Shown here: one piece after another, positions 8,008 through 43,396 of the stretch
Numbering within the stretch: the stretch's first letter is position 1
How the letters are laid out: the number at the start of each line of letters is the position of its first letter
Origin: Paracoccaceae bacterium
GTDB taxonomy: Bacteria > Pseudomonadota > Alphaproteobacteria > Rhodobacterales > Rhodobacteraceae
Assembly: GCA_964291375.2 (NCBI GenBank)
Contig: OZ219810.1
Span: forward strand, 54,021 to 118,020
Direction: 5' to 3'
Length of the DNA stretch: 64,000 nucleotides
The notes under the pieces: model-generated
The model's database searches: none
The model's input: the letters and a program-made list of their open reading frames with translations, nothing else
What the model was told of the DNA's origin: nothing
Made by a program: the position numbers and the translations under genes

Positions 8008-8020
8008 GCGGGTGGGATGT

Positions 8021-8056
8021 GGGGCAGGCTGGTGCGGAAGGGCCGCACCCTGCCCG
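8021..8056. terminator. GC-rich hairpin between convergent serA and the giant gene
   Basis: GGTGCGG (8031-8037) pairs with CCGCACC (8043-8049), extended by GGGCAGG / CCTGCCC. There is no T-tract. Confidence 0.3.
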
Positions 8057-8104
8057 GCTCAGTCAATATGCAGAGGTCTTCGCAGACCATGATCGGTCCC
8101 GGCC

Positions 8105-12150: not shown

Positions 12151-14356
12151 CCGAGGCCGTCACTTCGCTGAAATTCAGCTGTGCCGTTGTGCCGCTCACC
12201 GTGAAATCCGCCGCGTTCACATTCTTCACGTCCTCGCTGAACGTCACCCGCCAGGTCACGCTGTCCGCATTCGTCGGCGAACTCCCCGGCGTCTGATGCA
12301 CAATCGACGCAACACCCGGCGCGGTGTTGTCGATCACGTAAGCGCTTTCATCCGTCCCCGTCGGCGCGGTGTCGGAAAGGGCGTTGTCGGCAAGATCGGC
12401 GATATTCTGCCCGCCCGCAAAGCCGAGCGTCACCGTCGCATTCAGCCCCGCCAGATTGCCCCCCGAGGCGGTCACGTCATACACCCTTGAGGCCGTCACT
12501 TCGCTGAAATTCAGCTGTGCCGTTGTGCCGCTCACCGTGAAATCCGCCGCGTCCACATTCTTCACGTCCTTGCTGAACGTCACCCGCCAGGTCACGCTGT
12601 CCGCATTCGTCGGCGAACTCCCCGGCGTCTGATGCACGATCGACGCAACACCCGGCGCGCTGGTGTCATAGACGGACGTGGCCTGCGTGGCCGCAGTGCT
12701 CGGGTTGCCCGCCGCATCCGTCGCCGCCGCCGCCGCAACGTCTATCGTCACCTCGCCCTCCGCCGAGGGCGTGATCTCCGCCGTCCACACCTGATCGGCG
12801 GTGACCGGGGTGAAGGACCCGGCCGCGCCGTTGCCGACGCTGATGTCGCCAACCACAAAACCCGTCACCGGCTCCGAAAAGCTGAACCGGGCGGTGAAGG
12901 CCGACGAACTGCGCGCCGGAACATCCGAAATCGTCACCCCCGGCGCGGTGTTGTCGATCACGTAAGCGCTTTCATCCGTCCCCGTCGGCGCGGTGTTGGA
13001 AAGGGCGTTGTCGGCAAGATCGGCGATATTCTGCCCGCCCGCAAAGCCGAGCGTCACCGTCGCATTCAGCCCCGCCAGATTGCCACCCGAGGCGGTCACG
13101 TCATACACACGCGAGGCCGTCACTTCACTGAAATTCAGCTGTGCCGTTGTGCCGCTCACCGTGAAATCCGCCGCGTCCACATTCTTCACGTCCTTGCTGA
13201 ACGTCACCCGCCAGGTCACGCTGTCCGCATTCGTCGGCGAACTCCCCGGCGTCTGATGCACGATCGACGCAACACCCGGCGCGCTGGTGTCATAGACGGA
13301 CGTGGCCTGCGTGGCCGCAGTGCTCGGGTTGCCCGCCGCATCCGTCGCCGCCGCCGCCGCAACGTCTATCGTCACCTCGCCCTCCGCCGAGGGCGTGATC
13401 TCCGCCGTCCACACCTGATCGGCGGTGACCGGGGTGAAGGACCCGGCCGCGCCGTTGCCGACGCTGATGTCGCCAACCACAAAACCCGTCACCGGCTCCG
13501 AAAAGCTGAACCGGGCGGTGAAGGCCGACGAACTGCGCGCCGGAACATCCGAAATCGTCACCCCCGGCGCGGTGTTGTCGATCACGTAAGCGCTTTCATC
13601 CGTCCCCGTCGGCGCGGTGTTGGAAAGGGCGTTGTCGGCAAGATCGGCGATATTCTGCCCGCCCGCAAAGCCGAGCGTCACCGTCGCATTCAGCCCCGCC
13701 AGATTGCCACCCGAGGCGGTCACGTCATACACAAGCGAGGCCGTCACTTCACTGAAATTCAGCTGTGCCGTTGTGCCGCTCACCGTGAAATCCGCCGCGT
13801 CCACATTCTTCACGTCCTTGCTGAACGTCACCCGCCAGGTCACGCTGTCCGCATTCGTCGGCGAACTCCCCGGCGTCTGATGCACGATCGACGCAACACC
13901 CGGCGCGCTGGTGTCATAGACGGACGTGGCCTGCGTGGCCGCAGTGCTCGGGTTGCCCGCCGCATCCGTCGCCGCCGCCGCCGCAACGTCTATCGTCACC
14001 TCGCCCTCCGCCGAGGGCGTGATCTCCGCCGTCCACACCTGATCGGCGGTGACCGGGGTGAAGGACCCGGCCGCGCCGTTGCCGACGCTGATGTCGCCAA
14101 CCACAAAACCCGTCACCGGTTCCGAAAAGCTGAACCGGGCGGTGAAGGCCGACGAACTGCGCGCCGGAACATCCGAAATCGTCACCCCCGGCGCGGTGTT
14201 GTCGATCACGTAAGCGCTTTCATCCGTCCCCGTCGGCGCGGTGTTGGAAAGGGCGTTGTCGGCAAGATCGGCGATATTCTGCCCGCCCGCAAAGCCGAGC
14301 GTCACCGTCGCATTCAGCCCCGCCAGATTGCCCCCCGAGGCGGTCACGTCATACAC
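12143..14356 (-). CDS. giant gene fragment 6 (array)
   Basis: Made only of A and B cassettes, units A9 to A13. Confidence 0.8.
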   Translation of the reverse strand: MYDVTASGGNLAGLNATVTLGFAGGQNIADLADNALSNTAPTGTDESAYVIDNTAPGVTISDVPARSSSAFTARFSFSEPVTGFVVGDISVGNGAAGSFTPVTADQVWTAEITPSAEGEVTIDVAAAAATDAAGNPSTAATQATSVYDTSAPGVASIVHQTPGSSPTNADSVTWRVTFSKDVKNVDAADFTVSGTTAQLNFSEVTASLVYDVTASGGNLAGLNATVTLGFAGGQNIADLADNALSNTAPTGTDESAYVIDNTAPGVTISDVPARSSSAFTARFSFSEPVTGFVVGDISVGNGAAGSFTPVTADQVWTAEITPSAEGEVTIDVAAAAATDAAGNPSTAATQATSVYDTSAPGVASIVHQTPGSSPTNADSVTWRVTFSKDVKNVDAADFTVSGTTAQLNFSEVTASRVYDVTASGGNLAGLNATVTLGFAGGQNIADLADNALSNTAPTGTDESAYVIDNTAPGVTISDVPARSSSAFTARFSFSEPVTGFVVGDISVGNGAAGSFTPVTADQVWTAEITPSAEGEVTIDVAAAAATDAAGNPSTAATQATSVYDTSAPGVASIVHQTPGSSPTNADSVTWRVTFSKDVKNVDAADFTVSGTTAQLNFSEVTASRVYDVTASGGNLAGLNATVTLGFAGGQNIADLADNALSDTAPTGTDESAYVIDNTAPGVASIVHQTPGSSPTNADSVTWRVTFSEDVKNVNAADFTVSGTTAQLNFSEVTASGV

Positions 14357-16005
14357 ACGCTTGAGGCCGTCACTTCGCTGAAATTCAGCTGTGCCGTTGT
14401 GCCGCTCACCGTGAAATCCGCCGCGTTCACATTCTTCACGTCCTCGCTGAACGTCACCCGCCAGGTCACGCTGTCCGCATTCGTCGGCGAACTCCCCGGC
14501 GTCTGATGCACGATCGACGCAATCCCCGGCGCGGTGTTGTCGATCACGTAAGCGCTTTCATCCGTCCCCGTCGGCGCGGTGTTGGAAAGGGCGTTGTCGG
14601 CGAGGTCGGCGATATTCTGCCCGCCCGCAAAGCCGAGCGTCACCGTCGCATTCAGCCCCGCCAGATTGCCCCCCGAGGCGGTCACGTCATACACACGCGA
14701 GGCCGTCACCTGACTGACCGACAGCTGTGCCGTTGTGCCGCTCACCGTGAAATCCGCCGCGTTCACATTCTTCACGTCCTCGCTGAACGTCACCCGCCAG
14801 GTCACGCTGTCCGCATTCGTCGGCGAACTCCCCGGCGTCTGATGCACGATCGACGCAATCCCCGGCGCGGTGTTGTCGATCACGTAAGCGCTTTCATCCG
14901 TCCCCGTCGGCGCGGTGTTGGAAAGGGCGTTGTCGGCGAGGTCGGCGATATTCTGCCCGCCCGCAAAGCCGAGCGTCACCGTCGCATTCAGCCCCGCAAG
15001 GTTGCCGCCTGAGGCGGTCACGTCATACACACGCGAGGCCGTCACTTCACTGAAATTCAGCTGTGCCGTTGTGCCGCTCACCGTGAAATCCGCCGCGTCC
15101 ACATTCTTCACGTCCTTGCTGAACGTCACCCGCCAGGTCACGCTGTCCGCATTCGTCGGCGAACTCCCCGGCGTCTGATGCACGATCGACGCAACACCCG
15201 GCGCGCTGGTGTCATAGACGGACGTGGCCTGCGTGGCCGCAGTGCTCGGGTTGCCCGCCGCATCCGTCGCCGCCGCCGCCGCAACGTCTATCGTCACCTC
15301 GCCCTCCGCCGAGGGCGTGATCTCCGCCGTCCACACCTGATCGGCGGTGACCGGGGTGAAGGACCCGGCCGCGCCGTTGCCGACGCTGATGTCGCCAACC
15401 ACAAAACCCGTCACCGGCTCCGAAAAGCTGAACCGGGCGGTGAAGGCCGACGAACTGCGCGCCGGAACATCCGAAATCGTCACCCCCGGCGCGGTGTTGT
15501 CGATCACGTAAGCGCTTTCATCCGTCCCCGTCGGCGCGGTGTCGGAAAGGGCGTTGTCGGCAAGATCGGCGATATTCTGCCCGCCCGCAAAGCCGAGCGT
15601 CACCGTCGCATTCAGCCCCGCCAGATTGCCCCCCGAGGCGGTCACGTCATACACCCTTGAGGCCGTCACTTCGCTGAAATTCAGCTGTGCCGTTGTGCCG
15701 CTCACCGTGAAATCCGCCGCGTCCACATTCTTCACGTCCTTGCTGAACGTCACCCGCCAGGTCACGCTGTCCGCATTCGTCGGCGAACTCCCCGGCGTCT
15801 GATATACGATCGACGCAATCCCCGGCGCGGTGTTGTCGATCACGTAAGCGCTTTCATCCGTCCCCGTCGGCGCGGTGTCGGAAAGGGCGTTGTCGGCGAG
15901 GTCGGCGATATTCTGCCCGCCCGCAAAGCCGAGCGTCACCGTCGCATTCAGCCCCGCCAGATTGCCCCCCGAGGCGGTCACGTCATACACCCTTGAGGCC
16001 GTCAC
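14344..16005 (-). CDS. giant gene fragment 5 (array)
   Basis: Made only of A and B cassettes. Begins inside unit A5 and ends inside unit A9. Confidence 0.8.
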   Translation of the reverse strand: MTASRVYDVTASGGNLAGLNATVTLGFAGGQNIADLADNALSDTAPTGTDESAYVIDNTAPGIASIVYQTPGSSPTNADSVTWRVTFSKDVKNVDAADFTVSGTTAQLNFSEVTASRVYDVTASGGNLAGLNATVTLGFAGGQNIADLADNALSDTAPTGTDESAYVIDNTAPGVTISDVPARSSSAFTARFSFSEPVTGFVVGDISVGNGAAGSFTPVTADQVWTAEITPSAEGEVTIDVAAAAATDAAGNPSTAATQATSVYDTSAPGVASIVHQTPGSSPTNADSVTWRVTFSKDVKNVDAADFTVSGTTAQLNFSEVTASRVYDVTASGGNLAGLNATVTLGFAGGQNIADLADNALSNTAPTGTDESAYVIDNTAPGIASIVHQTPGSSPTNADSVTWRVTFSEDVKNVNAADFTVSGTTAQLSVSQVTASRVYDVTASGGNLAGLNATVTLGFAGGQNIADLADNALSNTAPTGTDESAYVIDNTAPGIASIVHQTPGSSPTNADSVTWRVTFSEDVKNVNAADFTVSGTTAQLNFSEVTASSVCMT

Positions 16006-18175
16006 TTCGCCAGCGCGTTGTGCCGCTCACCGTGAAATCCGCCGCGTTCACATTCTTCACGTCCTCGCTGAACGTCACCCGCCAGGTCACGCTGTCCGCA
16101 TTCGTCGGCGAACTCCCCGGCGTCTGATGCACAATCGACGCAACACCCGGCGCGGTGTTGTCGATCACGTAAGCGCTTTCATCCGTCCCCGTCGGCGCGG
16201 TGTCGGAAAGGGCGTTGTCGGCGAGGTCGGCGATATTCTGCCCGCCCGCAAAGCCGAGCGTCACCGTCGCATTCAGCCCCGCCAGATCGCCACCCGAGGC
16301 GGTCACGTCATACACAAGCGAGGCCGTCACCTGACTGACCGACAGCTGTGCCGTCGTGTTGCTCACCGTGAAATCCGCCGCGTCCACATTCTTCACGTCC
16401 TCGCTGAACGTCACCCGCCAGGTCACGCTGTCCGCATTCGTCGGCGAACTCCCCGGCGTCTGATGCACAATCGACGCAACCCCCGGCGCGGTGTTGTCGA
16501 TCACGTAAGCCCTTTCATCCGTCCCCGTCGGCGCGGTGTTGGAAAGGGCGTTGTCGGCAAGATCGGCGATATTCTGCCCGCCCGCAAAGCCGAGCGTCAC
16601 CGTCGCATTCAGCCCCGCCAGATTGCCCCCCGAGGCGGTCACGTCATACACCCTTGAGGCCGTCACTTCGCTGAAATTCAGCTGTGCCGTCGTGTTGCTC
16701 ACCGTGAAATCCGCCGCGTCCACATTCTTCACGTCCTTGCTGAACGTCACCCGCCAGGTCACGCTGTCCGCATTCGTCGGCGAACTCCCCGGCGTCTGAT
16801 GCACGATCGACGCAACACCCGGCGCGCTGGTGTCATAGACGGACGTGGCCTGCGTGGCCGCAGTGCTCGGGTTGCCCGCCGCATCCGTCGCCGCCGCCGC
16901 CGCAACGTCTATCGTCACCTCGCCCTCCGCCGAGGGCGTGATCTCCGCCGTCCACACCTGATCGGCGGTGACCGGGGTGAAGGACCCGGCCGCGCCGTTG
17001 CCGACGCTGATGTCGCCAACCACAAAACCCGTCACCGGCTCCGAAAAGCTGAACCGGGCGGTGAAGGCCGACGAACTGCGCGCCGGAACATCCGAAATCG
17101 TCACCCCCGGCGCGGTGTTGTCGATCACGTAAGCGCTTTCATCCGTCCCCGTCGGCGCGGTGTTGGAAAGGGCGTTGTCGGCAAGATCGGCGATATTCTG
17201 CCCGCCCGCAAAGCCGAGCGTCACCGTCGCATTCAGCCCCGCCAGATTGCCACCCGAGGCGGTCACGTCATACACAAGCGAGGCCGTCACTTCACTGAAA
17301 TTCAGCTGTGCCGTTGTGCCGCTCACCGTGAAATCCGCCGCGTCCACATTCTTCACGTCCTTGCTGAACGTCACCCGCCAGGTCACGCTGTCCGCATTCG
17401 TCGGCGAACTCCCCGGCGTCTGATATACGATCGACGCAATCCCCGGCGCGGTGTTGTCGATCACGTAAGCGCTTTCATCCGTCCCCGTCGGCGCGGTGTT
17501 GGAAAGGGCGTTGTCGGCGAGGTCGGCGATATTCTGCCCGCCCGCAAAGCCGAGCGTCACCGTCGCATTCAGCCCCGCCAGATTGCCCCCCGAGGCGGTC
17601 ACGTCATACACACGCGAGGCCGTCACCTGACTGACCGACAGCTGTGCCGTTGTGCCGCTCACCGTGAAATCCACCGCGTTCACATTCTTCACGTCCTCGC
17701 TGAACGTCACCCGCCAGGTCACGCTGTCCGCATTCGTCGGCGAACTCCCCGGCGTCTGATGCACGATCGACGCAACACCCGGCGCGGTGTTGACCACCAC
17801 CGGGCCGACAGGATCGCTCACAAGCGTCTCGGTGTTGGGGGTGGTGTCACGGTCGTCGAAGCTCACCCGCACCGCTATATGATAGCCCGCATCGTCGGCA
17901 ACCGGCGTGTAGGTCTGGCCGTCCGCGTCTTGAATTGGTACCGCTCCGGGGCTTACAGGCGAACCGTCAACTACTCTCAGGCGCACCCACCGGAAGCTGT
18001 AGCCAATCGGGAACGCCGTCGAGGGCAGACCATCCGCATCTGCCATATCCCCCGCGCGCGCCGTCAGCGTCCACACCGACAAACGCATCCCCCTCGATCT
18101 CCGGCGCGCCGGTCGCAGGGCTGTTGTCATCATCCAAAATTGTGATCGTCGCCGGGCCGATCCCGGTGCTGTCAT
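15983..18175 (-). CDS. giant gene fragment 4 (entry into the tandem array)
   Basis: LTARAGDMADADGLPSTAFPIGYSFRWVRL continues the module interrupted at about 18071. It is followed by cassettes A A B A A A. Confidence 0.8.
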   Translation of the reverse strand: MTAPGSARRRSQFWMMTTALRPARRRSRGMRLSVWTLTARAGDMADADGLPSTAFPIGYSFRWVRLRVVDGSPVSPGAVPIQDADGQTYTPVADDAGYHIAVRVSFDDRDTTPNTETLVSDPVGPVVVNTAPGVASIVHQTPGSSPTNADSVTWRVTFSEDVKNVNAVDFTVSGTTAQLSVSQVTASRVYDVTASGGNLAGLNATVTLGFAGGQNIADLADNALSNTAPTGTDESAYVIDNTAPGIASIVYQTPGSSPTNADSVTWRVTFSKDVKNVDAADFTVSGTTAQLNFSEVTASLVYDVTASGGNLAGLNATVTLGFAGGQNIADLADNALSNTAPTGTDESAYVIDNTAPGVTISDVPARSSSAFTARFSFSEPVTGFVVGDISVGNGAAGSFTPVTADQVWTAEITPSAEGEVTIDVAAAAATDAAGNPSTAATQATSVYDTSAPGVASIVHQTPGSSPTNADSVTWRVTFSKDVKNVDAADFTVSNTTAQLNFSEVTASRVYDVTASGGNLAGLNATVTLGFAGGQNIADLADNALSNTAPTGTDERAYVIDNTAPGVASIVHQTPGSSPTNADSVTWRVTFSEDVKNVDAADFTVSNTTAQLSVSQVTASLVYDVTASGGDLAGLNATVTLGFAGGQNIADLADNALSDTAPTGTDESAYVIDNTAPGVASIVHQTPGSSPTNADSVTWRVTFSEDVKNVNAADFTVSGTTRWRSDGLKGV

Positions 18176-38200: not shown

Positions 38201-39612
38201 GTCGCACCGGCCACCGTTATGATCGCGATATTCCCTCCTGCTTTGATCTCATAGGACAGATTACTCGCAACCACCACCCGGATGGTGGCGGCCGGTTCGA
38301 GCACACCATCGTCAACCGTCGGAATATCCAACTGCTTTTCGGTTTCACCGTCGGCAAAGCTGACGGTGAGCGAAAATGAAGGGCCGCCGCTGACCACATC
38401 CGCGCCTGACACAGTGACAATAACCGCCACAACCAAAGGCCCGAGGTCATCGGTGCGGGTGATGGTGAAAGAGGCGGTCTCGCCCTCCACAATCTCGCTG
38501 TCCGGCGCGGATACAGACACCTCTGACTTCACATTCATCGTCAGCGTGTCGTCGCCCGTAACCGTATAATCCGACGACGGCGCAAGTGAATAGACACCCC
38601 CGTGGTCTCTGGCATTCACCGCGGCGATTGACAGGCCACCCGTTTCGCTGTCCGGCGCAACGGTGCCGGTCGCAACCACCACCGCCTGCGTTTCCCCCAC
38701 GGGCACACGCCGAAGCTCGAAATCCACATCATATTCACGGGGCGAGAAACGCGCGAGCACCTCCGCAGGCCGCCCGTTGACCACCTCAAGCGTCGGCGCA
38801 TCAACCAACCGGGCTGTCAGCGGGTCATTGTCGCTGACCACCACCGAGGCCGCATCACCCGGCGCGGGGGGAACATGAATGGCATCGTTGGCATCGGAAT
38901 CGACCAGCCGCAGCGTGATGGTTTCGTCGCGTTCGCTGATACTGTCATCCTCGGTCGCCAGATCCAGCGTCGCCGTGTAGGAATTGGCGTCGAAAGTGAC
39001 GCTGCTCGGCGCGGTGCCGCTCAGCACCGTCGCATCCGGCACTGTGACCGAAACCGGCATCACAAGCTGGGTCTGATCCGAAGAGCGGGTGAGCCGGAAC
39101 CGGGCGGGCGCGCCTTCGGCTATATCGCCCAGGGCCTCGACAAAAACCAGCGTCACCCCCGTGCTCACCTTGTGGCCGTTGTCATCGCCGAGGCCGGTAA
39201 AGGTCAGCACGGCGTCGTTCCGGCTTTCGTCCTGAATGCTGCCGCCCGCCAGCGCCAGACCGTTATTCGGGACACTGATCCCGTTGGAGTCGTTGTCTCC
39301 GGCCACGGTCACATAGCGGAAGGTCAGTGCGTCGCCGTCACCGTTGCTGCTGACATAGGTTGCCTGCCGCGTCAGAGGGCCGATCAGCAGGTCAAGCGTC
39401 GGCGCGCCTGTCACCCTCACCGGCTCGCTGAACATCACCGTGACTTCGATGTTCTCTCCGGTTCCGTAGGTGGTGGTGCCGCTGGCAGGGCTGGACGTGA
39501 TCGATGCACCGCTCACCGTCGGGGCCGTCACGTCATCGTTTTCTGTCACCGTCACCGTCGCGAGGGTATCGTTCGCGGTGAGACCGGAATAGGCAGGCGC
39601 AGATGCCACCAC
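23212..39612 (-). CDS. giant gene fragment 2 (5466 codons)
   Basis: Contains Calx-beta (e.g. DITVDYTVTGDTATAGDDFT...DDTDHEPDETLTVTL) and SwmB-type repeats (LTLTYDEALD..SVP....FTVT...VTLTL...V.V.YT). It also has He_PIG/CADG domains (NRAPVV..IPDQT...LTYTA.L..G.ALPAWLSFD....F.GTP), 2 FN3 domains, a cadherin-like domain and 7 Cys-FW-Cys modules. The listed M is an internal GTG. Confidence 0.85.
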   Translation of the reverse strand: MVASAPAYSGLTANDTLATVTVTENDDVTAPTVSGASITSSPASGTTTYGTGENIEVTVMFSEPVRVTGAPTLDLLIGPLTRQATYVSSNGDGDALTFRYVTVAGDNDSNGISVPNNGLALAGGSIQDESRNDAVLTFTGLGDDNGHKVSTGVTLVFVEALGDIAEGAPARFRLTRSSDQTQLVMPVSVTVPDATVLSGTAPSSVTFDANSYTATLDLATEDDSISERDETITLRLVDSDANDAIHVPPAPGDAASVVVSDNDPLTARLVDAPTLEVVNGRPAEVLARFSPREYDVDFELRRVPVGETQAVVVATGTVAPDSETGGLSIAAVNARDHGGVYSLAPSSDYTVTGDDTLTMNVKSEVSVSAPDSEIVEGETASFTITRTDDLGPLVVAVIVTVSGADVVSGGPSFSLTVSFADGETEKQLDIPTVDDGVLEPAATIRVVVASNLSYEIKAGGNIAIITVAGATTPVEATVNGTRLVLSYNEALDTGSVPDKTAFTVMVGGTDTTDFEVQISGTDVVLMLGEPVASGEAVTVAYTVPGTNPIQDTTGTDASAFPARSVTNTTPGCSDGQPAEAFWNACLTVGESTQASDRFGYFGFGLSAADFGDLSDKDFDFNSVTYEVDGLSYQSEFDITFDPAPGAVADGWTLQVGERSFPLKEAMKSGDGDVTYSWSGLSWDSDNLGEIFPVSLRNVNRAPVVGNGIPDQTAAVGSLFSFLIPEDAFDDPDNNPLTYTAALSNGDDLPAWLTFDEATSTFTGTPGNGDAGALIITVTADDGRGDGTASDDFTLTISDGVAPVLVEAVADGNTLTVIYDEALDTTSVPDAGAFTVAVGAAAANRAVSAVQVDGEAVILTLISPVSAGQAVALSYTVPTGATPAPIRDLNGNPAVALDGTEVRNSTRACPDPSLPGNPFWRVCLTVAEQSGSFGYNAADNYGVLSTPSFSHDGNAHTISAITYESTGGLSLRFAAAPGTVAEGWTLQLGASSFDLSTAQAGADGVSYVWSSPVGFGWSSGDVGDKVTVALLQKNRAPVVANAIPDRTVTVGTALSYRIPANTFSDADGHTLTYTAALEDGSALPAWLTFDGATRVFSGTPLAANAGALSVQVTADDGNGGTASDDFTLTVQASDTTGPVLQSARVNGKVVMLTYDEPLDTGSVPGTDAFTVTVGGSTGPSVSNVSIGGDTSQVGLLLAEAVSGGQAVTLTYTVPTTGATPAPIRDLSTNNAAALSGQVVMNVSPACPNPALAADAVWNACLTIGADGTTIGRSLSGGYGTLSSDAFRHDGNDFRVSQLLDSETLNQFWLSLTPNTDVSFASTWVLQIGDTTYSLADATLRQNIFAWSPTIIDWTSANVGDKVTVALLQSNRVPVLENEVPDRAVIVGNALSYQIPANTFIDPDGDSLTYTVTLSGDGALPAWLSFDGASRSFTGTPQAGDEGTLALRLTADDLKGGTATDEFTFTVGANTLATGKPVISLPAVPLLDGKLVVGEELTAGRGDIADADGLPTDDAAFRWQWIRVDSGDETDIEGATGPAYTLQDDDLGKRIKVRVIFTDVGGSEEARTSDAARQVTLRPPELLTVTPSSTFSDNGVRKVRFTLTWNQPSNAADIQFYTLISSLVPARTLSLNPGVSAAEATEGYFDVEASDLRQGQYTIQLSASYSGLGLTVPPSNALQVESLFIPAAPTGLSAVAGAGQATLSWTAPQDVGYSDITGYEVRHRTPPSTGTWQDWAPTGSDTTTHTVTNLTNGTAYEFEVRAVNAVGPGPGSAPAQATPTSTDTTAPVRQSVTARGNLLTITYNEALNEAIIPAPGAFMVTVNSGTAQPVQSVAVTGQTVLLTLPVVLVAGDTAALVYTPGAKPVRDAAGNPAAAFTIASLDVARTAVTLTRLLQPWETDAATVTRWPFRLSLEFDWVVTGLDISDFSAVNSVVERVIPPGADCIPDAPTTFCVIARATRSGGETVRVTLPADALDHGNDRAQFRATTTPSDALTVTPLTTTATQPITGAFDATITFSADVLDAQGDFPPGSHLTADDLAVTNGTAQSLARPAPGDPQTYTFSILPDSDFEGTITLQLPANAVFTEHGAGNPATLPLTLTADTNPPEITGIEVTSDPGPDDIYELGDEITFRVTFDQPVTADATSPPMLAFTLGSSTKTLAHDATASTGSTLVFTYTVADTDKDINGIAVPANSLTGTVRDENNNAAALTHARFGPFTGHNVDGTGVVLTVTDADFSWVFDDTKLTPEWSVTTAFEWTNKPANITDYQVVFRSDDRTTFHTYNTDFPDPGGQTQIAFTSDGGSGNSNVDVSLADDYDDFNGAYYKVSVRGYYKPDGADAVIIDSADVRLWVPRPVSLCSGPQAPLRCQGAPIITEGNRAVTPTTTGHEDEDDWTWTLTGPDAGLFEFGRICPDTDDCDEDEKVRGLFFKTAPDHSNPTDADGDNRYDVTVTVDDNNSGNSEAVADSSLPAGKSSRTYGIAVQPDLTPPELQSAAVNHSTLTLTYDRDLDSTSVPDKSAFTMSKRHIRVSAVSISGMVVTLTLDIPIERRDGIRVSYTRPTGAGAMPLRSVTGGEVASFTNQSVTNNTPSFLCPSQRHPGTFWSGCMKIVSCLNNPDCEDFEPISQPTFAWGGYIDNPGDNDVGALVDANGNDASTFTRHGKTHKITAIGGDGNCISIRFADDPGEAALDWIMEFNEGIEYTSVRLGAALKTIACPSAFPASDHVFYFRNGDGLAWGRSQVLSRAFTLRPPPVELVTAIPDLNAEVEQGFTYTIPADSIIESSGDPLTFTALQSDDSALPAWLSFDPAARSFSGRPERDDIDEIEITVKAANASGDSASSTFMLTITDTTVPVLSTTSPPVVRYDEITLTFSEALESLSVFEGLATEMFPVVVGSESVDVAEAHSHGAVVTLRLAKPVPYGQTVAVSYVVPDRGIHARLLDLQGLPVLAFSPLSVANNTPQCSTSGHPANAFWRACAEVGSDPGGVFGFYRSSVENIGFLVPRSFTFGGAEYSFSRILNFDNGGDDGYIVRIGIKPELTAAQVAGWMLRLGGTDLSFDNATRRGPAQAGDGVQFEWTNTGSIWGASDVGNVQKLSLRRKPILLEEIPDQSAEALEAFSFTVPDGTFSNPDSAAPTYAATLEAGGALPGWLAFDPATRVFSGTPGFADIGVVSVKVTATGRAGDTAEDIFAITVADTTLPVLVTDPPPVVRGLREVVMTWSEPLDATAVPAVGAFTVQVNDVTRTVASVAVSEAVVTLVLEGLVLEGQAVTVTYATPALATDARLQDVAGNAAAGFTAPQNVANTFVLPDVCPASDAALPEGVFWQSCVLVGEIASGISYGARGTKGAILGAGFEYGGVSNSVDELSVISGFGLRLSFTSDPRPVVNGWFLEVAGQSLELDNSTWRAGNHYRWSSPGFTWGSDDVGDWVVVSLRQGNRAPVVVSELPDQVVTVGVDALDYAVPEGAFNDPDDGDSLTYTAALEDDSALPAWLSFDGTTFTGAPAADYDGALELQVKVTAADGEGGMVADVFTLTVNRPPVVTNVVELPKASVGVGFFHNFPADMFTDPDGDSLTYTVTLADDSELPSSWLIYAPNDPGVGGLVSPNPPAEAEGEWMIKLTANDGRGGSASHTFTLVIGPANPATGTVTITGDAQVGQTLTASSGTIMDADGFTDTDNDGFPDDLTWQWIRVDGDSGDETPIEGATATTYTLQDADYGTTIKVQISFTDLASNVETLVSNPVGPVDFKPPKLATPTLSDSYQDDGTHIFRYDFTWEQPSHTSDIVSYVVADSESGGAPAAITIDSGTALADATAGYIEFSDPPGAGSTFSMTVYYDAGRTLSATSNEVTVANLFPPEPPIILLNDPDVRGALLSWNPPGFNGNSAITRYEVRHRTPPETGTWTEWTSTVSAPQLVNLHEVTGLTAGATYEFQLRAVNAVGNGRETETVQITPTLPAVSFDSGVASVEEGNALNFRVDLTGRADEDTADITVDYTVTGDTATAGDDFTAGGGTLVFKASDEDDFKTITISTTDDTDHEPDETLTVTLSNPVNAILGHGPATATGTIEDNDNDVTGPVLQSAAVNNKTLTLVYNEALNANSKPDVTAFTVKINGTEIGDDDDSVSSVSDVSISGTEVTLTILGNTISGERVTVSYDDDDSTNKLRDTSNNAADGFTDETVINTSPSCPAAPSAKVFWDACLTIGGSGLAFGFESRNTPMFGKLLPVATFSVGSDTYEIINLSTDILTNSNTANLYLRFNSDPGAAIRNGWALEVGGETYDFEDSTDGFNTIPSFRVWSDGGRLDWGRDNARDRVPVALLYKNPPPVVAADIPAQSVVAGNTFSFDLPTGTFSDPLNDPLTYTASVDGTALTDPATGIWLAFDGTTFSGIPPQSAAGEITVTVKADDGPGRTDGEDGRSVETSFILTVDDETVPVLASASVNRERLTLTYSEPLDMDSVPPADAFTVTVDGNTVRVSDVTISGSTVDMTLFPAVLRGQRVRLVYTPQTGPPEDDMIRDVWMNNAAGLTKQEVANATPLTDTAPPLLDAIVLSEDGAVLTLTYDEALDEGSVPAAGDFTVTAGGASVAGVAVSGMTVVLTLDPVVIHAQEVTVGYTAPGTDPIRDAAMNPVADVTTTTVPNPVPPPVASITGGTASEELPVEFTVTLSAASAKRVTLGYSTSDGTAVAPDDYTAADSTVTLEPLATEGAISIATVQDAVTEGEETFTVTLKSPVNATLDPSPTATTATGTITDFDNVLPVLQSAKIIGGTLTLTYNEALNGASVPVPGDFAVTAGDAGATVSGVSVSGMTVVLTLTPPPANGLRVRLAYTRGDNPIEDLAGNDADDLSGQAVTDGDTPVLQSAALNGDTLTLTYDEALNERSVPVTGDFTVTADGTGVTVSGVSVSGMTVVLALTSGTVVTNGVPVVLTYTAGTNPIEDLTGSDAANLTAQAVLDRSVPVLQSAVGNGKTLTLTYDEALNEASVPGAGDFTVTADGTGVTVSGAEVSGAEVRLTLATSLLLSHQAVVLTYTGGTNPIEDVAGNDAANLSGQSVRNDTQKIPLTIKFVEFDNVFRTRREYRAIESSGDPVTVTLAIVDADGDRVALSGDVTLRMGTSDYAGNYILGLNHPATAGQDYTAVDTTVTISQGATSATFDVPVLDDDTVERFEYFGFTMAWEGPAPVFGDYDVSLETLTPETQPLGRVTSDDTATVSLAETSYEVTEGDTLDLVPNFSKAIEFDFDLNLSFSQPTGFQLGSDQFISTYASFPANNKIRYSKTYSGGVTAGAQAPIQVLAADDNVVEGPHSFRVLVGRNPGINSFFTFSDALQNDETLITILDNDVAELELGVLPGIIVEAGGVSTVRVGVTNGVTFRRNQQVTLSLAGSTATEGADYTIGTKTLTLRAGEPPADETSVAAETTVTAVADSIDDNGEKIIITATPWRYDAGCGQYHPEDDHHRQRGCKYRADRLADDQRQC
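26675..27075 (-). other. Cys-FW-Cys module 7
   Basis: SCPAAPSAKVFWDACLTIGG ... WALEVGGETYDF ... RVWSDGGRLDWGRDNARDRVPVALL. Confidence 0.5.
29321..29691 (-). other. Cys-FW-Cys module 6
   Basis: VCPASDAALPEGVFWQSCVLVG ... WFLEVAGQSLEL ... YRWSSPGFTWGSDDVGDWVVVSL. Confidence 0.5.
30330..30738 (-). other. Cys-FW-Cys module 5
   Basis: QCSTSGHPANAFWRACAEVG ... WMLRLGGTDLSF ... FEWTNTGSIWGASDVGNVQKLSL. Confidence 0.5.
31375..31845 (-). other. Cys-FW-Cys module 4 (long, cysteine-rich variant)
   Basis: LCPSQRHPGTFWSGCMKIVSCLNNPDCEDFE ... GNCISIRF ... TIACPSAF ... AFTLRPP. Confidence 0.5.
35512..35890 (-). other. Cys-FW-Cys module 3
   Basis: ACPNPALAADAVWNACLTIG ... WVLQIGDTTYSL ... FAWSPTIIDWTSANVGDKVTVALL. 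Confidence 0.5.
36520..36891 (-). other. Cys-FW-Cys module 2
   Basis: ACPDPSLPGNPFWRVCLTVA ... WTLQLGASSFDL ... YVWSSPVGFGWSSGDVGDKVTVALL. Confidence 0.5.
37525..37899 (-). other. Cys-FW-Cys module 1 (unassigned domain of about 125 aa)
   Basis: PGCSDGQPAEAFWNACLTVG ... WTLQVGERSFPL ... YSWSGLSWDSDNLGEIFPVSL. Boundaries approximate. Confidence 0.5.
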
Positions 39613-40121
39613 CAGATCAACCGTCCGTTTCCCCGGTCAGCATCATCATCGGCAACCGTGAGGTCAAAGCTGAGCACGGACGGAGTTTCGGTGGTGCAGG
39701 TGGCTGCCGAATCGCCAGTCAGCTCGAAATAGAGGGTGTCTTCGTCGCTGTTCACCGCCGTGCCGCGTCTGATTCTCGGGCGCGTCGCCGGTTGTTCACC
39801 GATGTCGAGGTCAATCCCGTCGCCAAGATCATCGAAACGCACCGCGATTGTCGTGTCCTGATTGGCACGGGCAGAGACTATGAACTCCCCTGTTTCGCCT
39901 TCGGCGACTTCGGTCGGGGGATCAAAAAGGCTGAAAGTGGCGCAGGCGGCATTCTGCGCCCATGCGGTGCCACCACCCGGCAGAGCAGCCAGAACAACCG
40001 CGGCCAGACCCGCCCGCCACAATGTGCGCAGGGGATGTGCGGTGCGGCCCATGTCAGCAGCCGCACGCCATGTCAGCAGCCGCATGTTTCGGAAAAACCG
40101 AACAAGGCCTGATGGGCGCAC
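39552..40121 (-). CDS. giant gene fragment 1: signal peptide plus first Calx-beta-like segment
   Basis: Candidate starts are GTG 40121 (GGGAG 6 nt upstream), ATG 40085 and ATG 40052. MGRTAHPLRTLWRAGLAAVVLAALPGGGTAWA-QN is signal-peptide-like. The frame is lost near 39631. Confidence 0.75.
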   Translation of the reverse strand: MRPSGLVRFFRNMRLLTWRAAADMGRTAHPLRTLWRAGLAAVVLAALPGGGTAWAQNAACATFSLFDPPTEVAEGETGEFIVSARANQDTTIAVRFDDLGDGIDLDIGEQPATRPRIRRGTAVNSDEDTLYFELTGDSAATCTTETPSVLSFDLTVADDDADRGNGRLIWWWHLRLPIPVSPRTIPSRR

Positions 40122-40125
40122 CGGA

Positions 40126-40171
40126 GGCTCCCGGCTCCCGGCTCCCGGCTCCCGGCTCCCGGCTCCCGGCT
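40126..40171 (-). repeat. heptanucleotide SSR, GGCTCCC x 6.6 (coding strand GGGAGCC)
   Basis: Direct read: ggctccc repeated at 40126, 40133, 40140, 40147, 40154 and 40161, plus a partial ggct at 40168-40171. Confidence 0.95.
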
Positions 40172-40172
40172 G

Positions 40173-40181
40173 ATTATAGCA
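40173..40181 (-). promoter_or_regulatory. candidate extended -10 promoter element TGCTATAAT for the giant gene
   Basis: The reverse complement of 40173-40181 (attatagca) is TGCTATAAT, a perfect TGnTATAAT. The only TTGACA lies 26 nt upstream, too far for a canonical -35. Confidence 0.4.
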
Positions 40182-40204
40182 CCCAAACCTGGATCAAACG
40201 ATGT

Positions 40205-40221
40205 TGTCAATGCCATTGACA
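40205..40221. promoter_or_regulatory. perfect 8-1-8 palindrome TGTCAATG-C-CATTGACA (candidate operator)
   Basis: Direct read. Lies 27-43 nt upstream of the candidate -10 and carries TTGACA on both strands. Confidence 0.3.
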
Positions 40222-40490
40222 TCTTTTCTGCCGCCGGATGCAACCATAACGTGGAGTTGTAGCTTATTTTTGGCTAAAGCAGCCAAACTAACCCGCCACA
40301 ATGTGCGAATCAGATTCTGGTCAAAAAGTCCTATACCGGAAATTTTTTCCGGCAATTCAACGACACTCCTCATCAGCTCAACCCTTTCGCGCCTGACCCT
40401 ACCCTGAACCGCTGGCTTGCTTGGTTTTAATATAGATGTAAAAACTTTGAACAAGCAAGAAATTTTAAGGCCTGTTTGAACTTTTTGTGA

Positions 40491-40504
40491 TGCAACCGGT
40501 TGCA
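40491..40504. promoter_or_regulatory. perfect 14-bp palindrome TGCAACCGGTTGCA
   Basis: Direct read. GATGCAACC recurs at 40237-40245 and 40489-40497, and further TTGCAA copies follow at 40500-40525. Confidence 0.25.
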
Positions 40505-40618
40505 AATGGCGGACCATTGCAAACGGGCAAACATCCCGCATCGACATGGGCGGCAGGTGCTGGTCCGGGTGATCCGCGCCCGCCCGTCCCGGCGCAGGCG
40601 GCGCGCCCCCCGTTCCCG

Positions 40619-43396
40619 CTATTCGGCGGCGATGTTGTCCGCGACCGGCTCCACCCGCACGGCGGCAAACTTGAACTCCGGTATCTTGCCATAGGGGTCA
40701 AGCGCCGGGTTGGTCAGGATATTGGCGGCGGCCTCGACATAGGCGAACGGCACAAAGACCATGTTTTCCGCAATCGCCCGATCCGCGCGGGCCATGATTT
40801 CGATCCGCCCCCGCCGGGTGATCAGGCGCACCGTGTCGCCGGGAGAAACCCCCAACCGGCGCAGGGTCTTGGGGTTGAGCGAACAGTTGGCCTCCGGCTC
40901 CACCGCGTCAAGCACCGCCGAGCGGCGGGTCATCGACCCGGTATGCCAGTGTTCAAGCTGGCGGCCGGTGGTCATCACCATCGGATAGTCGGCGTCCGGG
41001 GTTTCATCCGGGGCGATGATGGCGGCGGGGGTGAACCTCGCCCGCCCTTCCGGGCGCGGAAAGCCGTCGCCAAAGACAACCGCCTGCCCCGGATCATCGG
41101 GGCTGAGCGACGGATAGGTCACGGCCTGTTGCTCCAGCCGTTCCCAGGTGATGTTGTCGAGGCTCTGCATGGTCAGCTTCATCTCGGCAAAGACATCACG
41201 GGGGTGGGTATAGCGCCAGCCAAGCCCCAGCCGGTTGGCAATGTCGATGGTGATCGCCCAGTCCTCGCGCGCCTCGCCCGGCGGGGGGACCGCCGGACGC
41301 ACCATCTGCACCTGCCGGTTGGTGTTGGAAACGGTTCCGGTCTTTTCATAAAGGGCCGAGGCAGGCAGGATAACATCGGCATAATTCGCGGTCTCGGTCA
41401 GGAAAATGTCCTGCACCACCATCAGGTCGAGCCGGGCAAGGGCCTCTCGCGCATGGTCCGCGTCCGGGTCAGACATGGCCGGGTTCTCGCCCAGAATATA
41501 CATGCCCCGGATCGTGCCCGCATGGATGTGGTCGATGATCTCGGTCACGGTCAGGCCCTTTTCGTCCGACCAGTCGCCGGACCCCCAGACGCCGCTGAAA
41601 TGCCTGCGCACCGCATCGTCGCCAACCGGCTGATAATCCGGCAGAAACATCGGGATCAGGCCCGCATCGGACGCGCCCTGCACGTTGTTCTGGCCGCGCA
41701 GAGGGTGCAGGCCGGTGCCGGGACGCCCGACATGGCCGCACATCAGCGCCAGGCTGATCAGACAGCGGGAGTTGTCGGTGCCGTGGATATGCTGTGACAC
41801 GCCCATGCCCCAGAAGATCATGCCCGCCCTGGCCTTGGCGAAGGTGCGGGCCACATCGCGGATCACCTCGGGCGCGATCCCTGAAATCCCGGCCATCGCC
41901 TCGGGGCTGAAATCTTTCAGATGGGCGCGCTCGGCCTGCCAGTTCTCGGTATAGGCGTCGATATATTGCTGATCATAAAGGCCTTCTTCGGCAATGACGT
42001 GCATGATAGAGTTCAGCATCGCCACATCGGTGCCGGGGCGGAATTGCAGCATCTGATAGGCAAAGCGCCGCAGGCCGACACCGCGCGGGTCCATCACGAT
42101 CAGCTTGCCGCCGCGTTTGGTGAATTGCTTGAAAAAGGTGGCGGCCACCGGGTGGTTCTCGACCGGATTCGCACCGATGATAATGGCGACATCGGCGTTT
42201 TCGATCTCGTTGAAGGTCGCCGTCACCGCGCCGGAACCGATGTTTTCGATCAGCGCCGCCACCGAGGACGCATGGCACAGCCGTGTGCAGTGATCGACAT
42301 TGTTGTGGCCAAAGCCCTGCCGGATCAGCTTTTGGAACAGATATGCCTCTTCGTTGGTGCATTTGGCCGAGCCGAACCCGGCCACGGCGCGCCCGCCATG
42401 GGCCTTTGCCAGTTTCGAGAAGCCCCCCGCCACCGCATCAAGCGCCTCTTCCCAGCTTGCTTCGCGAAAATGGGTGGCCAGATTGCCGGGATCAACGTTC
42501 AAGCCCTTGGGGGGCGCGTCGGCGCGCCGGATCAGGGGCCGGGTCAGACGATGGGGGTGGTGGATGTAATCAAAGCCGAAACGCCCCTTGACGCACAGGC
42601 GGCCCTCGTTGGCGGGGCCGTCCACGCCCTCCACATACCTGATGCTGCCCCCCTTGATCTTCAGGCTGACCTGACAGCCGACGCCACAGAACGGGCAGAC
42701 GCTTTTGACCTCGCTGTCATAATCGGCACTGTCGCCTGTCTGCGCCTCGTCCAGCACAGTTGCAGGCATCAGCGCCCCGGTCGGGCACGCCTGCACGCAT
42801 TCGCCGCAGGCAACGCAGGTGGATGCCCCCATCGGGTCATCAAAATCAAACACCGGATAGGCGTCATGGCCGCGCCCGCCCATGCCGATCACATCATTGA
42901 CCTGAACCTCGCGGCAGGCGCGCACGCACAGGCCGCACTGGATACAGGCGTCAAGATTGACCCGCATCGCCACATGGCTGTCGTCGAGCAGCGGCACCCG
43001 CGCTGCCTCCAGCCCAGGAAAACGGCTCTCGGAAACCCCATTCGCCGCCGCCATGTCCCACATATGGGACGACTTGTCATGGGCCGCGTCGCGGGCGGGC
43101 TGATCGGCAACCAGCATCTCCACCACCATGCGGCGGGCAGAGACCGCGCGGGCGCTGTCGGTTCTGACCACCATGCCCTCGGCAGGTGTGCGGATGCAGG
43201 AAGCCGCAAGCGTGCGTTCGCCCTCAATCTCGACCATACAGGCGCGGCAGTTGCCGTCGGGCCGATACCCCGGCGCGGGCTTGTGGCACAGATGCGGGAT
43301 GACCAGCCCCCGGCCATGGGCGACCTCCCAGATGGTTTCGCCGTCGCGGGCGGTGACCTGTTGGCCATCAAGGGTGAAGGTGATTGTCTCCGCCAT
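40619..43396 (-). CDS. fdsA: NAD-linked formate dehydrogenase alpha subunit (molybdopterin, NuoG-like N-terminus)
   Basis: 925 aa. It has an N-terminal 2Fe-2S region (HLCHKPAPGYRPDGNCRACMVEI), ferredoxin motifs CIQCGLCVRAC and CVACGECVQAC, and a molybdopterin oxidoreductase body. There is no in-frame TGA, so it is the Cys type. Confidence 0.9.
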   Translation of the reverse strand: MAETITFTLDGQQVTARDGETIWEVAHGRGLVIPHLCHKPAPGYRPDGNCRACMVEIEGERTLAASCIRTPAEGMVVRTDSARAVSARRMVVEMLVADQPARDAAHDKSSHMWDMAAANGVSESRFPGLEAARVPLLDDSHVAMRVNLDACIQCGLCVRACREVQVNDVIGMGGRGHDAYPVFDFDDPMGASTCVACGECVQACPTGALMPATVLDEAQTGDSADYDSEVKSVCPFCGVGCQVSLKIKGGSIRYVEGVDGPANEGRLCVKGRFGFDYIHHPHRLTRPLIRRADAPPKGLNVDPGNLATHFREASWEEALDAVAGGFSKLAKAHGGRAVAGFGSAKCTNEEAYLFQKLIRQGFGHNNVDHCTRLCHASSVAALIENIGSGAVTATFNEIENADVAIIIGANPVENHPVAATFFKQFTKRGGKLIVMDPRGVGLRRFAYQMLQFRPGTDVAMLNSIMHVIAEEGLYDQQYIDAYTENWQAERAHLKDFSPEAMAGISGIAPEVIRDVARTFAKARAGMIFWGMGVSQHIHGTDNSRCLISLALMCGHVGRPGTGLHPLRGQNNVQGASDAGLIPMFLPDYQPVGDDAVRRHFSGVWGSGDWSDEKGLTVTEIIDHIHAGTIRGMYILGENPAMSDPDADHAREALARLDLMVVQDIFLTETANYADVILPASALYEKTGTVSNTNRQVQMVRPAVPPPGEAREDWAITIDIANRLGLGWRYTHPRDVFAEMKLTMQSLDNITWERLEQQAVTYPSLSPDDPGQAVVFGDGFPRPEGRARFTPAAIIAPDETPDADYPMVMTTGRQLEHWHTGSMTRRSAVLDAVEPEANCSLNPKTLRRLGVSPGDTVRLITRRGRIEIMARADRAIAENMVFVPFAYVEAAANILTNPALDPYGKIPEFKFAAVRVEPVADNIAAE

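Follow-up and report, generated by a model that had tools for sequence, protein, structure and literature searches.

In Haemophilus influenzae, the heptanucleotide repeat (ATCTTTC)n upstream of the adhesin genes hmw1A and hmw2A is transcribed within the 5' untranslated region (5'-UTR), and expression falls as n rises (PMC12721329; PMC8262952 is our second source for this system). RNase III cuts a hairpin in which about ten of the repeats are paired with a distinct G-rich arm located further downstream (PMC12721329). A leader repeat is also found in Moraxella catarrhalis, where (AGAT)n is located in the 5'-UTR of uspA2 (Attia and Hansen 2006, via PMC4679880); as summarised there, the copy number ranges from 6 to 23 depending on the strain, and expression was shown experimentally to follow it. 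Here, we describe a simple sequence repeat (SSR) with the unit GGGAGCC that lies between an extended -10 element and the candidate start codons of a giant gene for a surface protein with immunoglobulin (Ig)-like repeats. The locus is part of a 64 kb stretch of contig OZ219810.1, which we call the window and whose numbering is used for all coordinates, and its source is an uncultured marine member of the order Rhodobacterales belonging to the Roseobacter group. The repeat is perfect, differs in unit number among three strains of the same species, and may modulate the expression of the giant gene in a graded manner.

SSR switches also operate within promoter spacers, as in the poly-C tract of Bordetella fim, the TAAA repeat of Neisseria nadA, and the poly-T tract of Helicobacter sabA. 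G-rich heptamers that are intergenic and transcribed, and whose unit number varies among close relatives, have been described in Xanthomonas (GGGAATC) and Nostoc (GGGGA(C/T)T); they are abundant genome-wide, prefer four units, and are mostly found in antisense orientation less than 50 bp upstream of open reading frames (ORFs) or just after stop codons (PMC4692102). In marine Beggiatoaceae, TAACTGA heptamer arrays of 2-6 copies precede start codons, with hundreds of arrays per genome (PMC4679880). Our search for literature linking phase variation, SSRs, and Roseobacter found no paper.

The 5' end of the giant gene is organised as follows, with coordinates here and below read on the minus strand, the coding strand of this gene:

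40181-40173, minus strand: extended -10 element TGCTATAAT, read directly
40172-40171, then 40170-40168, minus strand: CA, then GCC, read directly
40126..40171, minus strand: heptanucleotide SSR, a partial unit AGCC plus (GGGAGCC)x6, identified with Tandem Repeats Finder (TRF); relatives have 12 and 7 units
40167-40126, minus strand: the six perfect GGGAGCC units, read directly
40125-40122, then 40121-40119, minus strand: TCCG spacer, then GTG, the most upstream candidate start codon
8105..40121, minus strand: giant gene for an Ig-like-repeat surface protein, from ORF lists and Pfam

On re-reading, the layout given in a preliminary description of this DNA proved exact in every coordinate, from the -10 element through CA, GCC, the six repeats, TCCG, and GTG to the ATG codons further downstream. 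The tract is a real, perfect SSR: TRF reports it at 40126-40171 with a period of 7, 6.6 copies, 100% matches, and a score of 92, and a pattern of three GGGAGCC units has no second occurrence in the 64 kb, with 0.00 expected from dinucleotide shuffles. It is the only SSR with a unit of 5-11 nt and at least three copies in the window, and 673 kb taken from 80 related genomes of the Rhodobacterales, among the matches listed, yielded no SSR with a unit of this size. The tract lies 3' of the extended -10 and 5' of all candidate start codons. The -10 element itself, which the preliminary description had called perfect, was confirmed as such and is the sole one in the 64 kb: the pattern TGNTATAAT was found once when both strands were searched, as compared to an average of 0.20 in shuffled sequences (18/100 shuffles had at least one match). 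It sits 5 nt upstream of the tract in the correct orientation, is identical in both related strains, and has a predicted transcription start site (TSS) 6-9 nt downstream, within the first repeat unit.

Related strains were found by an exact-protein look-up with FdhA, the product of the gene upstream of the tract, and its 90% cluster. This gave two metagenome contigs:

L001: ENA ERZ25072196, 144.9 kb metagenome contig, same species, 12 units
L002: ENA ERZ24894577, 150.9 kb metagenome contig, same species, 7 units

Across the three strains, the unit count, a check set beforehand, is thus 6 (window), 12 (L001), and 7 (L002), so invariance was not seen. All three arrays, which come from independent assemblies, are perfect and the tract flanks are identical, meaning that changes in unit number keep both the promoter-proximal and the start-proximal sequence constant, as had been proposed in the preliminary description. 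Over 10.7 kb, 69 substitutions separate the window from L001; the 42-nt SSR difference is the largest indel in this stretch, and the others are three of 1 nt and one of 6 nt. L002 is more divergent from the window (423 substitutions) yet only one unit apart, compared to six units for L001. As the closer strain differs by six units and the distant one by a single unit, the unit number does not go in parallel with divergence, as would be expected of a mutational hotspot. Further alleles were sought in three ways: a pattern consisting of the promoter and the first unit had 0 matches in metagenome contigs of the Joint Genome Institute (JGI), searches with the N-terminal 300 aa and 120 aa gave only the window's own product and distant Ig-domain matches, and an exact TusA look-up gave the L001 contig again together with a 1.4-kb Logan contig that stops short of the tract. 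Outside the species, the tract was found in 0/80 related fdhA loci among the matches listed; against GTDB species representatives, the best FdhA identity among the matches listed is 83% (Sedimentitalea and other Roseobacter-group genera).

The interpretation that we favor, at a probability of roughly 0.45, is that the tract is a hypermutable leader SSR serving as a graded modulator of giant-gene expression. Slipped-strand mispairing would add or remove whole units, and mismatch repair is generally considered to miss loops of 7 nt. Transcription would most likely initiate at the extended -10, with the tract forming the very beginning of the mRNA leader. Since the tract is located 3' of the -10, promoter geometry is unchanged by the unit number, and n would alter only how long the leader is, how many GGAG motifs it contains, and how far a self-paired hairpin extends; from such changes in the leader and in RNA or DNA structure, a graded effect is predicted. 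The growing hairpin, or the length itself, could modulate the stability or processing of the mRNA or its transcription across the tract, and would not be expected to act by occluding the ribosome-binding site (RBS). The outcome would be a graded, heritable, and reversible amount of a costly surface protein, resembling a rheostat and not an on/off switch. Changes in unit number do not depend on the reading frame of the gene: with n mod 3 of 0, 1, and 0 for 6, 7, and 12 units, respectively, the downstream ORF and its signal peptide are kept in each allele. Of the proposals in the preliminary description, whose observation is strengthened by the polymorphism, the SSR switch and the hmw analogy remain the leading hypothesis, and the details concerning a GTG start, an RNA G-quadruplex (G4), and decoy Shine-Dalgarno (SD) sites proved weak.

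The structure of the tract was modelled with ViennaRNA, with G4s allowed or not, and accessibility was obtained from the partition function. The tract RNA is predicted to pair with itself via palindromic CCGG at the unit junctions, forming 4-bp helices and GAG/GAG 3x3 internal loops. The hairpin of the array alone has an energy of -17.8 kcal/mol at n = 6 and of -45.7 kcal/mol at n = 12 and grows linearly with n, and in the leader the ensemble energy drops by about 4.4 kcal/mol per unit.

Compared to the known systems, the locus most closely resembles hmw1A/hmw2A, and this analogy, drawn in the preliminary description, is apt because the 7-nt SSR is transcribed in the 5'-UTR there (PMC12721329). 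Both loci have a 7-nt unit upstream of a very large adhesin gene, with a 5'-UTR position that is predicted in our case, and in both the copy number varies among isolates without touching the ORF. A graded output and an RNA hairpin involving the repeats would be further shared features, the former expected and the latter predicted here. However, the hmw unit is AT-rich, whereas the unit described here is GC-rich with an SD-like GGAG, and natural hmw arrays have at least 11 units compared to 6-12. The predicted structure also differs, as the array is self-complementary via CCGG, with 3x3 loops every 4 bp, and has no complementary C-rich arm downstream of the tract; in this model, the locus does not form an hmw-type hairpin with a separate complementary arm, and the self-paired array is likely a poor RNase III substrate. 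Finally, the hmw genes encode two-partner-secretion adhesins of a host-restricted pathogen, while the protein described here is predicted to be a Sec-signal Ig-repeat giant of a free-living or marine member of the Rhodobacterales.

The likeness to uspA2 consists in an SSR in the mRNA leader of a surface-protein gene (predicted here) with a strain-dependent copy number, but uspA2 has a tetranucleotide unit and a pathogen as host, and its effect on expression is experimental, as opposed to the effect that we infer. With the Xanthomonas and Nostoc repeats, the tract shares a G3-4N3-4 heptamer that satisfies the G4 rule as well as length variation. It differs in being the one array in 64 kb, in having 6-12 units, and in its location on the sense strand, and its C-containing loops are predicted to favor a hairpin over a G4. 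The TAACTGA motif of the Beggiatoaceae, in contrast, has no SD character, and no link to one giant gene has been described for it. The promoter-spacer switches would have slipped-strand mispairing at an intergenic SSR before a surface-protein gene in common with the tract, but they change the -35/-10 spacing or the phasing of a regulator, whereas the tract lies 3' of the -10.

Several points weigh against a modulatory role of the tract. The accessibility of all three candidate starts is flat for n of 4 or more, with mean unpaired probabilities of 0.33-0.38 for GUG, 0.48-0.51 for AUG1, and 0.21-0.33 for AUG2, so folding predicts no translational effect and supports neither RBS occlusion nor the decoy-SD idea of the preliminary description. 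The extended -10 has no good -35 (TTGATC at a 13-nt spacer, TTGACA at 26 nt), and a sigma-70 scan did not list the TGCTATAAT promoter for this reason. Only three alleles are known, no other contig of the species having been found. The start codon is uncertain, with three in-frame candidates (GTG 40121, ATG 40085, and ATG 40052), and the giant gene of the window is frameshifted and consists of at least eight overlapping or abutting ORFs. Finally, the GGGAGCC motif may simply be slippage-prone, and a sense-orientation rule for (GGGAGCC)n arrays, tried on the metagenome arrays discussed below, was rejected, as a crude ORF test supported by GC content at third codon positions (GC3) gave 36 arrays in sense versus 46 in antisense orientation.

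The choice of start codon determines how much of the leader the tract would occupy. Besides the GTG listed above, the following features are relevant:

40083..40085, minus strand: ATG 40085, the gene-caller start
40049-40084, minus strand: 19-nt tandem duplication with 17-nt copies TGCGGCTGCTGACATGG, from a repeat search (family D8), present in all three strains
39957..40052, minus strand: ATG 40052 and a 32-residue Sec-type signal peptide, MGRTAHPLRTLWRAGLAAVVLAALPGGGTAWA followed by Q, with n, h, and AXA regions assigned by inspection

Reading downstream from the in-frame stop codon that closes the frame (TGA, 40196-40194), GTG 40121 is the first possible start. The last unit contributes a GGAG whose end is 6 nt from this codon, confirming the SD-like motif noted in the preliminary description, and this is the only good SD among the three starts, but that SD is itself the last repeat unit. 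The gene callers picked the equivalent of ATG 40085 in all three assemblies (7355 in L001, 7229 in L002), and the window's own product from this codon (P0001) is 177 aa long; no SD is present upstream of it, and real genes in the window often have a weak SD or none. Through the 19-nt duplication, ATG 40085 and GTG 40121 come into frame, and a 5-codon upstream ORF (MACGC plus stop, 40071-40054) arises that ends 1 nt before ATG 40052. Because 19 is not divisible by three, ATG 40052 is the one start that keeps the frame of the signal peptide both with and without the duplication; by inspection, the signal peptide is also most canonical when translation begins there, and the mature protein is expected to start at QNAAC. 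For the segment between GTG and ATG 40052, GC3 is 0.55, compared to 0.75 ± 0.11 for the gene, and 12% of equal-sized windows are that low. As a rough weighting, we place about half of the weight on ATG 40052 and about a quarter each on ATG 40085 and GTG, the latter being the least supported of the three. The earlier view that the tract is essentially the whole leader depends on the GTG start and is weakened, since the gene callers use ATG 40085 and the duplication and GC3 favor ATG 40052; with either downstream ATG, the tract makes up about 36-50% of the predicted leader.

The main rival explanation, a serious possibility in our view, holds that the tract is a neutral, slippage-prone SSR whose unit number drifts in a tolerant non-coding spacer and whose GGAG and G4 patterns are coincidental. 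Exact (GGGAGCC)x4 or longer arrays are present in at least 120 unrelated JGI metagenome contigs (L083-L202), mostly from soil and sediment, in either orientation (the 36 versus 46 given above) and with unrelated flanks. These arrays have 4-15 units and often lie beside other heptamer arrays (GGGAACC, GGAAGCC, GGGAGTC, GTCAGCC), and at a second locus with shared flanks, the unit number is 5 in one contig and 6 in the other (L116 and L192). In many bacterial genomes, heptamers reportedly outnumber other long SSRs, and polymerase slippage has been proposed as an explanation (summarised in PMC4692102 and PMC4679880). The predicted start-site accessibility, which is independent of n, would also be consistent with neutrality. 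In the clade of the window, however, such SSRs are not a genome-wide background, as none was found in the 673 kb of relatives among the matches listed, and the tract is the sole SSR of its kind in the 64 kb. Moreover, it is flanked precisely by the only extended -10 of the window on one side and by the largest gene of the window on the other, and leader SSRs of like geometry alter expression in hmw and uspA2. Among the metagenome arrays, TANNNT occurs within 10 nt upstream in 17/117 cases, compared to 4/117 in the reverse orientation (p about 0.005). Two contigs have a layout like that of the window, namely L103 (1996-2023), with TATAAT, 4 units, and an ATG at +64, and L155 (101-170), with TACAAT, 10 units, and an ATG at +25, and L144 (5477-5560) is another clean look-alike. 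Three further contigs (L100, L152, and L201) have GGGAGCC arrays of ~7 units that adjoin the palindrome GTTTCACGTGAAAC, and may represent one conserved locus or an array-associated binding site in another lineage.

Less probable, and unlikely in our view, is a G4 switch, in which the number of G4s in the mRNA leader or in the non-template DNA would set the repression of translation or transcription, or promote R-loops or recombination. The claim in the preliminary description that the tract satisfies the canonical G4 rule on the mRNA-sense strand is correct as far as the pattern G3N4G3N4G3N4G3 is concerned, with six GGG-N4 units, and the related heptamers GGGAATC and GGGGAYT form G4s in vitro (PMC4692102). 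When DNA parameters are used and G4s are allowed, the single-stranded G-rich (non-template) strand of the tract is predicted to form G4s at n = 4, 6, 7, and 12, so that a G4 or R-loop effect at the DNA level would be conceivable. Rearranged DNA on both sides of the tract, i.e. a 92-bp indel, the 19-nt duplication, and a mosaic signal-peptide region, would also fit such a role. However, the G4Hunter score of the tract is 0.86, below the usual threshold of 1.2 and below the 1.14 of the Xanthomonas GGGAATC, and at the RNA level the C-containing loops allow CCGG pairing. With one RNA G4 worth -8.4 kcal/mol in the folding model, the hairpin prevails at n = 6 (-17.8 versus -8.4 kcal/mol) and at n = 12 (-45.7 versus about -25 kcal/mol), and no G4 appears in the minimum free energy structure of the array or the full leader even with G4 folding allowed, although this G4 energy model is crude and K+-dependent.

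The region upstream of the tract bears on the question of where transcription starts and contains two features:

40197..40618, minus strand: AT-rich non-coding spacer of ~420 bp between fdhA and the promoter/tract
40619..43396, minus strand: fdhA, NAD-dependent formate dehydrogenase alpha, the upstream same-strand gene

It is quite unlikely that the real promoter lies elsewhere, either downstream of the tract (with ATG 40052 as the start), upstream at ~40460-40490, or as read-through from fdhAB, which would make TGCTATAAT incidental and the tract only a variable spacer or upstream element. The absence of a properly spaced -35 at TGCTATAAT is in line with this view, as is the site at 40491-40462, the only promoter-like site that passes the two-hexamer sigma-70 scan. 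The same-strand upstream genes encode the beta and alpha subunits of the NAD-dependent formate dehydrogenase, no terminator is predicted after fdhA, and if ATG 40052 is the start, 73 nt separate the tract from it. On the other hand, the sigma-70 scan gives no promoter-like site between the tract and the ATGs, extended -10 promoters work without a -35, and the element in question is a perfect, unique match conserved in three strains. In addition, a TSS further upstream would keep the tract in the leader, so that this alternative merges with the leader-SSR interpretation.

The spacer has a GC content of 45%, compared to 63% for the genome, and Rfam gave no match at 39000-41500 with E up to 1. 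An ORF of 117 aa at 40194-40547 was considered as a gene or an N-terminal extension and rejected (GC3 of 0.46, no Pfam match, no gene call in relatives). A perfect 14-bp palindrome, TGCAACCGGTTGCA, is located at 40491-40504, with ~320 nt between it and the -10. All three strains have conserved it, and it is a candidate regulator-binding site; two TTTGCAA direct repeats (40504-40525) precede it. CtrA-box-like sequences (TTAA-N7-TTAA, at most 1 mismatch) have 3 matches in the 64 kb versus 1.6 expected, which is not significant; two of the three are in the spacer, at 40427-40441 and 40465-40479. Upstream of the promoter, a 92-bp segment (40234-40325, minus strand) is present in the window and L001 and absent from L002. 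It holds a partial copy of the signal-peptide DNA (CGCACATTGTGGCGGG...), with 40279-40307 matching 40000-40028 at 24/29 positions, including a 16-nt exact match. The signal-peptide stretch (39957..40052) is in turn strongly different in L002, where it is replaced by divergent sequence, and the promoter, tract, and leader in between are identical. Judged from these alignments, the 92-bp indel and the divergent signal-peptide region resemble the outcome of recombination that affected the vicinity of the gene's 5' end in patches.

It is very unlikely that long-read metagenome assembly introduced the differences in unit number by error. L001 is a contig with 6x coverage according to its record name, and two single-G deletions, both in G runs and private to the window, resemble homopolymer errors. 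Such errors do not produce 42 nt of perfect repeat, however, and the three arrays are perfect, have the same flanks, and differ by exact multiples of 7, while the remaining indels between the window and L001 are limited to the four short ones described above. Weakest of all, to the point of being hardly credible, is classical translational phase variation, in which translation would begin upstream of the tract and 7-nt frame shifts would switch the protein on and off: in the 7-unit L002 allele, the called ATG is preceded by 86 open codons, among them ATGs of the same frame at L002 7025 and 7091, and this frame would read the tract as GSREPGA repeats, but the 6- and 12-unit alleles have no start between the in-frame stop and GTG and yet an intact ORF with signal peptide, the upstream region (45% GC, GC3 0.46) has no Pfam match or gene call, an upstream start would place the signal peptide ~100 residues inside the protein, and the ORF being kept at all three copy numbers rules out a classical in-frame on/off mechanism.

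The giant gene has Pfam matches to SWM_repeat, He_PIG, Calx-beta, and Big_12, and its product, with a Sec-type signal peptide and Ig-like repeats, is predicted to be surface-exposed or secreted. The preliminary description treats it as one giant gene; this holds for L002, where the homologue is one intact ORF of 11,920 aa, but not for the window with its at least eight ORFs. In L001, the downstream ORF has 2441+ aa. The GTG ORF of the window stops at 39552 after 189 aa, and the remainder of the gene is divided among at least seven further ORFs, with breaks near 39634, 23200, 18000, 16000, 14350, 12150, and 10510. The first break (~39634) coincides with a run of four Gs that has five Gs in L001 and L002, and the second private single-G deletion of the window is at 40404, in the spacer. 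This suggests that the breaks may be either homopolymer errors or signs of very recent decay or pseudogenisation.

Variability is also found within the coding region. Tandem repeat blocks of 336 bp (112 aa) that are 93-96% identical and encode Big_12-type Ig domains occupy 10350-17792 (minus strand), and these are a second, far larger repeat system, in which copy numbers are apt to change and assemblies to collapse. Starting ~2.8 kb into its ORF, the L002 version of the giant gene is highly divergent from the window and L001, with many indels (L002 ~7600-10778 versus window ~37300-36540); the 7 kb upstream are nearly identical. From this comparison, the adhesin gene appears to be mosaic between strains.

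On the favored interpretation, the locus represents a known kind of switch, an intergenic SSR rheostat before an adhesin gene, in a new host and with an unusual unit that is GC-rich, self-pairing, and SD-bearing. Hypermutable repeats of surface-protein genes are textbook knowledge for host-restricted pathogens and, to our knowledge, hardly documented in free-living marine bacteria. Here, such a tract precedes a gene that is probably the costliest one of the whole genome, with three alleles in three strains. Should the favored interpretation be true, a GC-rich, self-pairing, SD-containing variant would join the small set of leader SSRs formed by hmw and uspA2. A more far-reaching reading, which we consider speculative and rather unlikely, is that a mutational rheostat provides heritable and reversible cell-to-cell variation in the production of an adhesin of about 12,000 residues, as bet-hedging for the choice between attached and planktonic life in a marine Roseobacter-group bacterium, and that beyond this locus, -10-proximal (GGGAGCC)n is a recurrent leader architecture in high-GC environmental bacteria. 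In long-read metagenomes, the locus can also readily serve as a marker of variation among strains and within populations. If the unit number sets expression, the tract would offer the Roseobacter group a simple genetic way of generating heterogeneous surface attachment.

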